A DNA stretch of 64,000 nt, from the NCBI GenBank assembly GCA_951406725.2, contig OX597839.1, forward strand, positions 29,016,001 through 29,080,000, read 5' to 3'. Below the pieces are notes generated by a model. It searched no databases and was not told the origin of the DNA. It worked only from the letters and a program-made list of their open reading frames with translations. Positions 60,627-62,279 of the stretch are shown in pieces (within the stretch, counting starts at the first letter, position 1; each line of letters starts with the position of its first letter). This DNA is from Octopus vulgaris (taxonomy: Eukaryota). Position numbers and translations under genes: made by a program.

Positions 60627-61799
60627 TATATGCTAATATCGAAGTGAGAATGAATGCTCAACACCACTTTCTTTATTTGTGGGACAAGGCTACCAGTGGT
60701 TTCATGTAAAGAGAGATCTTTACAATTGTTTAAGCATACCGCATTAGATAAGAATACCCATCCAAAACGGAGATGAGTACCAAACTTTCAATGTGGTATG
60801 CTTGATCTCTTTTTACATGAAACCATTGGCAGCCTTATTAATCCACAAATAAAGTGTGTGTTGGGTATGGGTATTTGTTATGTTTTGCTGAAATAAGCTA
60901 CTGTGGATTGTGTTTCTACTTACAATAGGAAATTGTCATAAGATAGAAATTGCTGGGATACCTGAAGACCCCTTGTGATTCAGAAAAAAAAAATCAAGAA
61001 AAACAAAAACACAAGTAGACAACTGGACAATTCTGCACGAAGATTAATTATTTGAGTATATAAAAAAAAAATACATAAAAGTACAATGAAAAACATGAAT
61101 GAAAAGTACATCATTGTGCTGCAACTAAACTATTTTAGTGAAGTGGAGAAAACCATGTTTCCCTGCTTATCTAAAACTTCTAGAAATTTCTACAGAATTC
61201 ACTGGAGTGTTGGATGGTGAAATAATCTTGTAATGGGAATTTCTACAAAGGAATTTCCTAGCAAATTTTTAATTGGCAGACAACAGGAAGAATTATTGTT
61301 AGAGGAAAAATAAAAGATTAATGAAGAAGTCACAGCAAAACATTGTGGTTCTTTGTTATAAAAATGAGGAGTGTTCTAAAATTTATCTGAGGTGTAGTGG
61401 CAGCTTTGGGAGCCTTGGAGTGAAGGAGAGAGCCCTCAAGGAGCTAGAGAGGCAGAGGAATTTGGGGTTAGTTTTCTTTTGAAGGGAAAAATATGAGAAA
61501 AGAAATATGAAGGGAGAAACTCTGGAAAAAAGGGGAGGGAAAGAGAGAATGTAAGAGGAATTGCAATGAAACAGCAGGAATTCTAATAAGATCAAGTCTG
61601 GAAGATTCTTGATAGAAATGTTTCTGTTTCTCAGCAGAAATTGAGAAAGTGTGCAGAACCTATGTTTATTTAAAAAAAAGGGATAATGAAAAATGCGTAG
61701 GTGAAGAATTTGTGCAATTGCAACACTGAGAAAATGGGAAGAGCTGTTAGAGTAATTAGGGGTCAGTTAGTATTGCGGCTAATTTGTGGTCAGTATTAC

Positions 61800-62279
61800 C
61801 TTCTGTTGAAGGCAGAGGTTCAGGATCGGATCGATTGAAAAGATGAAATAAGCGGAAATGATTGTGTTGTTGGTCGTAGAAGTTGTTGTTTTGATTATCC
61901 TGAGGAATATGCTGCTGATGAGGATGAGTAGAGGGAAGAGAATGGACAGGAGTAGGAGGAGGAGGAGGAGCGAGGAGAGAAGAAAAAGAAGACGGGGAGG
62001 AAGGCTGAATGGGTTGCTGATGAAGGAGGAGCTCGGATGTTGTTTCGTATTCGTCAGTGGTTCTATTTGTTGTCAAGTTGGTGATGGAGGCAGGAAGCGA
62101 GGCCTCGATTTGGTTCCTGTTGCCGTTCTCGTCCGCAGGTTCGTATGTGCCGTCGTCATCTAAAGCGTATGACGGACCGTGGCGAGAGCACATGAGGAAC
62201 ATGGTGGACATGTGTTTAATGTGCAGGTAGGTCATCACAATTGATGCCATACTGGAGCGCTTGGGCAGTGGAACACGAC
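61800..62279 (-). CDS. Candidate 480-nt in-frame GRK exon (low-complexity S/P/H/Q-rich insert); alternatively a terminal exon ending at stop 61756
   Basis: Acceptor gcctggtttttcag|GT CGT GTT and donor ACA GAA G|gtaata are both phase 1, the same phase as the PH exon acceptor. The frame is open for 160 codons, while the other two frames stop within about 20 codons. The segment is GC/CpG-rich against an AT-rich background. I recognise no homologue. Confidence 0.55.

Follow-up and report, generated by a model that had tools for sequence, protein, structure and literature searches.

The 3′ end of a rhodopsin kinase gene

By the window we mean the whole 64,000-nt stretch of Octopus vulgaris DNA analyzed here; its minus strand carries the 3′-terminal part of a GRK gene. 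When the window was combined with 280 kb of adjoining genome, this gene could be followed over a span of ∼253 kb with 19 known coding exons, which match proteins named rhodopsin kinase or GRK1 from Octopus, Enteroctopus, Argonauta, and squids (92 to 100% identity to the cephalopod proteins; E 2e-299 versus human GRK2). RGS/RH, kinase, and PH domains are all present, and the nearest solved structure is human GRK2 (6c2y). With an RH domain, an AGC kinase, a C-terminal PH domain, and closest similarity to GRK2/3, the gene belongs to the GRK2/3 subfamily. PMC8465341 describes this kinase as the one that turns off rhodopsin in cephalopods, with expression in skin and suckers as well, and describes an extensive interface between RH and PH domains.

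The exon that closes the RH domain ends in phase 1 outside the window, 4,495 nt beyond its border (G000:C26:29084495). The known coding exons referred to below are the following.

52475 to 52591, minus strand: second PH-domain exon
54269 to 54417, minus strand: first PH-domain exon, with tandem acceptors at 54417 and 54411
42713 to 42859, minus strand: last coding exon and stop

The first PH exon is single-copy in the genome (G000). Its tandem acceptors lie 6 nt apart and give rise to the canonical 691- and 689-aa forms of the kinase, which differ by the presence or absence of Gly-Thr at the start of the PH domain. Both forms occur in octopus and squid records, making this a conserved two-residue switch; in Euprymna, the 689-aa form is an eye clone and the 691-aa form a light-organ clone. 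The word splicing is absent from the text of PMC8465341 as far as that text was covered.

Two further features of the window were seen. A 187-aa stop-to-stop frame at 50020 to 50583 on the plus strand shows a CxxC...C plus YVGET pattern, which resembles the GIY-YIG endonuclease part of Penelope-type retroelements. In addition, positions 44272 to 44755 hold a tandem array with 8 copies of a 61-nt GC-rich unit, and related sequence appears again near 58200 to 58300.

A 480-nt open exon between the RH and PH domains

The RH-ending exon and the first PH exon (54417) are separated by a 14-kb intron, inside which lies the exon that is the subject of this report. Its features are listed below; X5 and X11 are sequencing runs and P0028 is a distant orthologue, all described further on.

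62280 to 62300, minus strand: acceptor, with a polypyrimidine tract and AG at 62281-62280; X5 and X11 use it, and P0028 retains its LPGFS context
61800 to 62279, minus strand: cassette exon, 480 nt, phase 1/1, adding 160 aa between the RH end and the PH domain; supported by an X5 contig and its loose ends
61794 to 61799, minus strand: donor GTAATA, used in X5; EPLPSTEG context kept in P0028
61756 to 61799, minus strand: read-through tail and TAA stop, which would close a 728-aa PH-less form; neither P0028 nor organism C conserves the tail
61665 to 61670, minus strand: AATAAA, candidate intronic poly(A) signal

An earlier note, made from the letters alone, had proposed a phase-1 acceptor and donor here, 480 nt apart and in frame with the PH exon. 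The sequence and the joins in X5 bear this out: the acceptor reads ...GGTTTTTCAG|G with the exon beginning at 62279, the donor reads AAG|GTAATA with the last exon base at 61800, and the frame entered in phase 1 stays open through all 480 nt. Also present as described in that note are the stop that is reached if the donor is ignored (TAA at 61758-61756) and the AATAAA at 61670-61665, 86 nt further. The acceptor, however, is not the strong one that had been claimed; both sites are moderate, with 11 of 14 pyrimidines at the acceptor and neither +5G nor +6T at the donor. Moderate splice sites are usual in alternative exons.

We scanned 215 kb of the gene (first intron left out) for YAG|G with at least 10 of 14 pyrimidines, AG|GTR, phase 1, a length that is a multiple of 3, and at least 300 nt of open frame; under these criteria, which were shaped on the candidate, it is the sole match on the minus strand. 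Genome-wide, 1 of the 40 DNA matches in G000 is the locus itself, the other 39 covering only the TCT/CCT low-complexity part (query positions 390 to 560, at most 134 nt), and the N-terminal peptide (the first 56 residues of the exon) has a single genomic match. Being single-copy apart from its low-complexity part, the exon was rejected as an exonized transposable element, with the proviso that repeat-copy counts are lower bounds and that older, decayed elements could remain. A poison (NMD) exon was likewise rejected on account of the 480-nt length, the open frame, and the in-frame joins. There were no Rfam matches over 61000 to 63000.

About 40 nt of intron 5′ of the acceptor (62280 to 62320) align, in translation, with P0028. 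That an intron flank aligns with such a distant orthologue suggests a conserved splicing-control element.

An RNA contig joins the exon to both neighbors

For RNA evidence, we compared the locus with Logan contigs of 7 of the 24 listed runs, the other 17 including the DNA runs X18 to X20; the RNA status of all seven is a guess, and X5, X6, and X13 join both PH exons and hence hold spliced RNA. In X5 (organism B), a 535-nt contig fits 61797 to 62281, with 1 difference in 485 nt from the window, and carries 26 and 24 loose letters at its two ends. Each set of loose letters has one match in 264 kb: the first matches where the preceding exon ends, the second where the PH exon begins. The joins fall exactly on the predicted acceptor and donor, so that one and the same contig shows the exon spliced to both neighbors. 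They include 28 and 27 letters of the neighboring exons, below the 31-letter bridge threshold, which is what a single arm of an assembly bubble should give, and the PH contig of X5 begins at its acceptor, as at a branch.

Organism C, ∼93% identical and represented by run X11 from a separate study, provides a 55-nt contig in which the upstream join is identical, in addition to an unspliced contig. The junctions that the earlier note had suggested looking for, at 62279 and from 61800 to 54417, were thus both found in 1 of the 7 runs (X5) and the acceptor junction in 2 of the 7 (X5 and X11). As for the skipped form, all named proteins found lack the exon.

Among the contigs listed, those of X1, X6, and X13 are unspliced over both sites, that of X4 over the donor, and that of X16 over the acceptor; further joins in these runs may lie beyond the listing. 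In X5, the depth of the exon contig is 8.1 compared to 62.9 for the PH exons, a rough measure which suggests that the exon-containing transcript is a minor form.

Two observations on unspliced contigs stand apart. X13, also from organism C, contains an unspliced 1,540-nt contig over the exon and both flanks (61579 to 62528) at a depth of 16.7, compared to 21.4 for spliced mRNA and 2 for a neighboring intron piece; a detained intron, nuclear RNA, and a separate transcript are candidate readings. Furthermore, contigs of X1 and X6, which stem from different studies, both start exactly at 61649, 16 nt past the AATAAA.

Selection on the exon and its orthologues

Over the whole exon, the window and X11 show 28 differences, and the indels of 2+1+2+1 = 6 nt keep the frame; pN/pS is 0.43 (P 0.016). 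In codons 1 to 80, all 8 differences are at third positions, 7 of them synonymous and 1 non-synonymous, giving a pN/pS of 0.04 (P 2e-4; P 2.5e-4 to 1e-3 by simulation), a strong synonymous excess that comes from one species pair and from a split at codon 80 picked after the data were seen. In codons 81 to 159, pN/pS is ∼1, a value inflated by misalignment in the low-complexity tract. With the frame kept and synonymous changes in excess, the exon behaves as a sequence under protein-coding selection. Neither of the findings that would have spoken against it, a match to a high-copy repeat or a frame-disrupting indel, turned up.

Orthologous frames were found as well. P0027 and P0031 (Logan) are 86% identical and keep the frame; in P0027, 6 of 71 residues differ in codons 10 to 80, as against 14 changes and 1 insertion in codons 81 to 159. 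A HMMER search of 1.84 billion representatives added P0028 (ENA), which is 46% identical (E 3e-8). It keeps the peptide at the acceptor side (LPGFS), the block that follows, and EPLPSTEG at the donor, with 117 residues in between; exon length varies from 159 to 117 aa. Directly past the donor, P0028 is unrelated; since conservation stops at the donor, selection appears to keep the cassette and not the read-through tail. A further sequence, P0001, holds a GRK PH exon whose intron flanks differ from those of the window; as the contigs of P0028 and P0001 are equally long (126,144), we infer that the two represent one contig from a more distant cephalopod.

An orthologue at only 46% identity also means that the exon did not arise by some recent accident in octopus. 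The lineage specificity put forward in the earlier note holds solely at a broader level than that note perhaps intended; in the searches made, that of 1.84 billion representatives among them, nothing orthologous turned up beyond these cephalopod-type sequences. (Of the four HMMER matches, P0027 and P0028 were kept, and P0029 and P0030 dropped as low-complexity chance matches.) A long protein with the insert was seen in none of 570 candidates of 280 to 2000 aa, which is weak evidence, and none of the named GRK proteins found carries it, noting that clustering can mask a long form. Scanning JGI metagenomes for DNA of distant orthologues gave 222 pattern matches, none of which was confirmed.

Could the exon be splicing noise, that is, a nonfunctional pseudo-exon included at a low level? 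The form that includes it seems to be minor and is absent from the named proteins found, most runs show the region unspliced, and in simulation 28 random changes leave the frame open 44 to 47% of the time. Against this, noise would explain neither the synonymous excess nor the boundaries and helix kept in a 46%-identical orthologue, and the exon is not a repeat; we regard this reading as largely refuted already and very improbable. The exon is spliced at both sites with in-frame joins, is under selection at the protein level, and has conserved boundaries. We consider it almost certainly a real cassette exon that, we infer, is translated in the cell.

Transcripts that might end or begin at the exon

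Read-through at the donor would turn the exon into an alternative last exon, stopping at 61756 and cut after the AATAAA, to give a 728-aa PH-less kinase that can coexist with the cassette form. Several contigs are in keeping with this possibility, to which we give a limited chance. A 620-nt contig of X11 begins at the acceptor branch, passes the donor, and stops after another 122 letters, at an inferred position of ∼61654 to 61664, just past the AATAAA; X11 is without a donor-spliced contig; and a contig of X6 ends at 61652. P0027 retains an in-frame stop at this position, organism C has one a codon further on, as read by hand from a loose end, and no substitution in the AATAAA at 61665-61670 is listed for organism C. 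However, a stop often survives by chance at 7% divergence, poly(A) letters occur on no contig, the downstream region is just 37% T, and contigs of X1, X6, and X13 continue down the intron, so that unspliced pre-mRNA explains the cover. Moreover, free change is seen in the tail peptide of organism C, and P0028 has an unrelated tail of 35 aa, in contrast to the conserved context of the donor. The isoform switch of the earlier note therefore stands in one half: the 160-aa insert has both junctions in X5, the acceptor in X11, purifying selection, and frame-keeping orthologues to its credit, but the PH-less form did not gain the same standing, with read-through contigs, one end near the AATAAA, no poly(A), and an unconserved tail.

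The region could conversely serve as a start. An internal promoter might create an alternative first exon, translated from Met10 (ATG at 62250), for a short helix-spacer-PH protein that sequesters G-beta-gamma; an isolated GRK2 PH domain does suppress G-beta signaling, as described in the covered part of PMC6389790. The conserved block starts with Met10, which is invariant, the stretch from 62500 to 61751 is CpG-rich (30 CpG in 750 nt versus 0 to 1 per 250 nt just downstream), and the unspliced 1,540-nt contig of X13 covers the exon and its upstream flank at a depth of 16.7. Yet 2 runs from 2 species show the kinase-side exon spliced to the acceptor, and contigs cannot show starts. We consider such a first exon improbable.

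Anatomy of the 160-aa insert

Including the exon predicts a product of 851 aa. The insertion point is between residues 554 and 555 of the 691-aa form, corresponding to the linker before the PH domain in human GRK2, and the insert has two parts.

62155 to 62250, minus strand: conserved block, insert residues 10 to 41, with a predicted hydrophobic-basic helix (residues 10 to 31), Cys30, and then YALDD
61858 to 62142, minus strand: spacer, insert residues 46 to 140, rich in S/T/P/H/Q/N, likely disordered and length-variable

Residues 10 to 41 contain 20 positions that are invariant in 4 sequences, with Cys30 invariant in 4 of 4, and 82% of residues 46 to 140 are disorder-promoting. AlphaFold predicts the helix at residues 10 to 31 (pLDDT 50 to 60) and otherwise a 4-residue turn, all at low confidence (mean pLDDT 49). 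The helix is basic and hydrophobic on all sides (mean hydrophobicity 0.95, helical moment 0.13) and falls below transmembrane hydrophobicity (Kyte-Doolittle 1.0). With moments of 0.01 to 0.36 in 18-residue windows and hydrophobic residues all round, it was rejected as a GRK5-type amphipathic helix, which would have a hydrophobic face and a basic one; having failed this test, it is not a member of the GRK5 kind, though it may act similarly.

Neither the insert nor its orthologues gave a Pfam match above cut-off, and the ESM Atlas held no usable match for the insert. A predicted complex of insert residues 1 to 52 with the kinase core (residues 1 to 554) scored 0.01. Two Tyr motifs (GTYE and DEYE) and a polyproline tract, candidates for SH2/SH3-type sites, were set aside as they are absent from P0028.

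P0015 and P0018 (ENA) are GRK2-type fragments from another animal group that carry a 25-residue low-complexity extension in the RH-PH linker, indicating that this joint has been lengthened independently.

A proposed second membrane anchor

We propose that the exon is an alternatively spliced, frame-keeping unit that probably provides a minority 851-aa kinase with a second, G-beta-gamma-independent membrane anchor. Inclusion would place the conserved helix and the disordered spacer between the RH and PH domains. The long flexible spacer might loop out, or loosen the fixed packing of PH on RH, while the PH domain itself would be unchanged and still bind G-beta-gamma and lipid. The helix, basic and hydrophobic all round, could then lie in the membrane surface, and the invariant Cys30 at its end may be S-palmitoylated as in GRK4 and GRK6. 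Together, spacer and extra anchor would keep the long form at the membrane with less dependence on G-beta-gamma. In the parts of PMC6389790 and PMC3307776 covered, the GRK2/3 PH domain is described as binding G-beta-gamma and thereby recruiting the kinase, whereas GRK4/5/6 are targeted to the membrane by a helix and a palmitoylated Cys instead.

These steps differ in strength. It is quite likely that the conserved helix serves in targeting or docking of some kind, but whether its partner is the membrane or a protein is, given that much, about an even call. Under the same cassette, the helix might be a protein-docking motif that folds on binding to a Ca2+ sensor, a scaffold, or the kinase's own core, a close rival to the membrane anchor to which we give a modest chance. 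The invariant residues sit on every face of the helix and include the polar S12, T16, Y17, K21, S24, and S31, and the invariant set exceeds the needs of a lipid anchor, YALDD and EPLPS being kept too. The hydrophobic spacing with basic residues between presumably resembles that of calmodulin-binding helices. On the other hand, no family, atlas, or structure match suggests a partner, and an invariant Cys beside basic residues would fit lipidation equally.

A wider scheme would combine the membrane-anchored long form with intronic polyadenylation: one gene making, through both processes, a kinase recruited by G-beta-gamma as well as forms, a PH-less one among them, that a new lipidated helix would anchor, as a switch between GRK2-like and GRK4/5/6-like behavior that tunes the shut-off of rhodopsin or neuronal GPCRs by cell type. 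We offer this as speculation that is rather unlikely to hold in full.

Significance and comparison with known systems

GRK subfamilies are defined by their C-terminal route to the membrane. All GRK2/3-clade proteins surveyed in PMC3307776, in the part covered, have the PH domain directly after the core. Literature searches, covering listings and text passages, brought up neither this exon nor a GRK2/3 form with an insert at the PH domain or without that domain. Exon skipping in Drosophila Gprk1 is a different event, in which a 52-nt exon 8 is affected and all domains are lost (PMC13423992, covered in part). A conserved 120- to 160-residue cassette at the RH-PH joint has no counterpart in the proteins or literature found here.

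If true, a second form that is targeted differently would bear on rhabdomeric light adaptation and on extraocular light sensing, since the kinase shuts off rhodopsin and is expressed in skin and suckers. The insert also amounts to a natural experiment on whether activation by G-beta-gamma depends on RH-PH packing. On the practical side, octopus GRK1 gene models and primer or antibody designs miss the exon.

The closest relatives are the cephalopod rhodopsin kinases and GRK2-3 themselves (O97020, ACB05676/7, XP_029651650, and human GRK2, 6c2y), which share the RGS/RH, kinase, and PH domains of the host gene. As the earlier note had stated for GRK2, none of the GRK proteins compared carries the insert, and their RH-PH linkers measure 36 to 63 residues versus ∼198 with the exon. 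The 689- and 691-aa cephalopod forms are produced by alternative splicing in the identical intron, but differ by 2 residues only, whereas the cassette adds 160 and, in X5, joins the first (Gly-Thr) acceptor.

A second comparison is with the C-terminal targeting of GRK4, GRK5, and GRK6, where a basic hydrophobic helix and a Cys likewise come right after the RH/kinase core and are set by splicing; PMC3307776 mentions an A and a B form of GRK6 and cites a paper whose title speaks of four splice variants of GRK4. These kinases belong to another subfamily, however, and the octopus helix has a low moment, precedes a long spacer and an intact PH domain, and shows no sequence match to them.

More generally, a known class consists of cassette exons under tissue regulation whose products are disordered regions containing short conserved motifs. 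The octopus exon resembles them in keeping the frame, in its moderate sites, and in having a conserved flank and a conserved motif within a fast-changing stretch, but it is unusually long at 480 nt and interrupts the compact unit that RH and PH form in a GRK.
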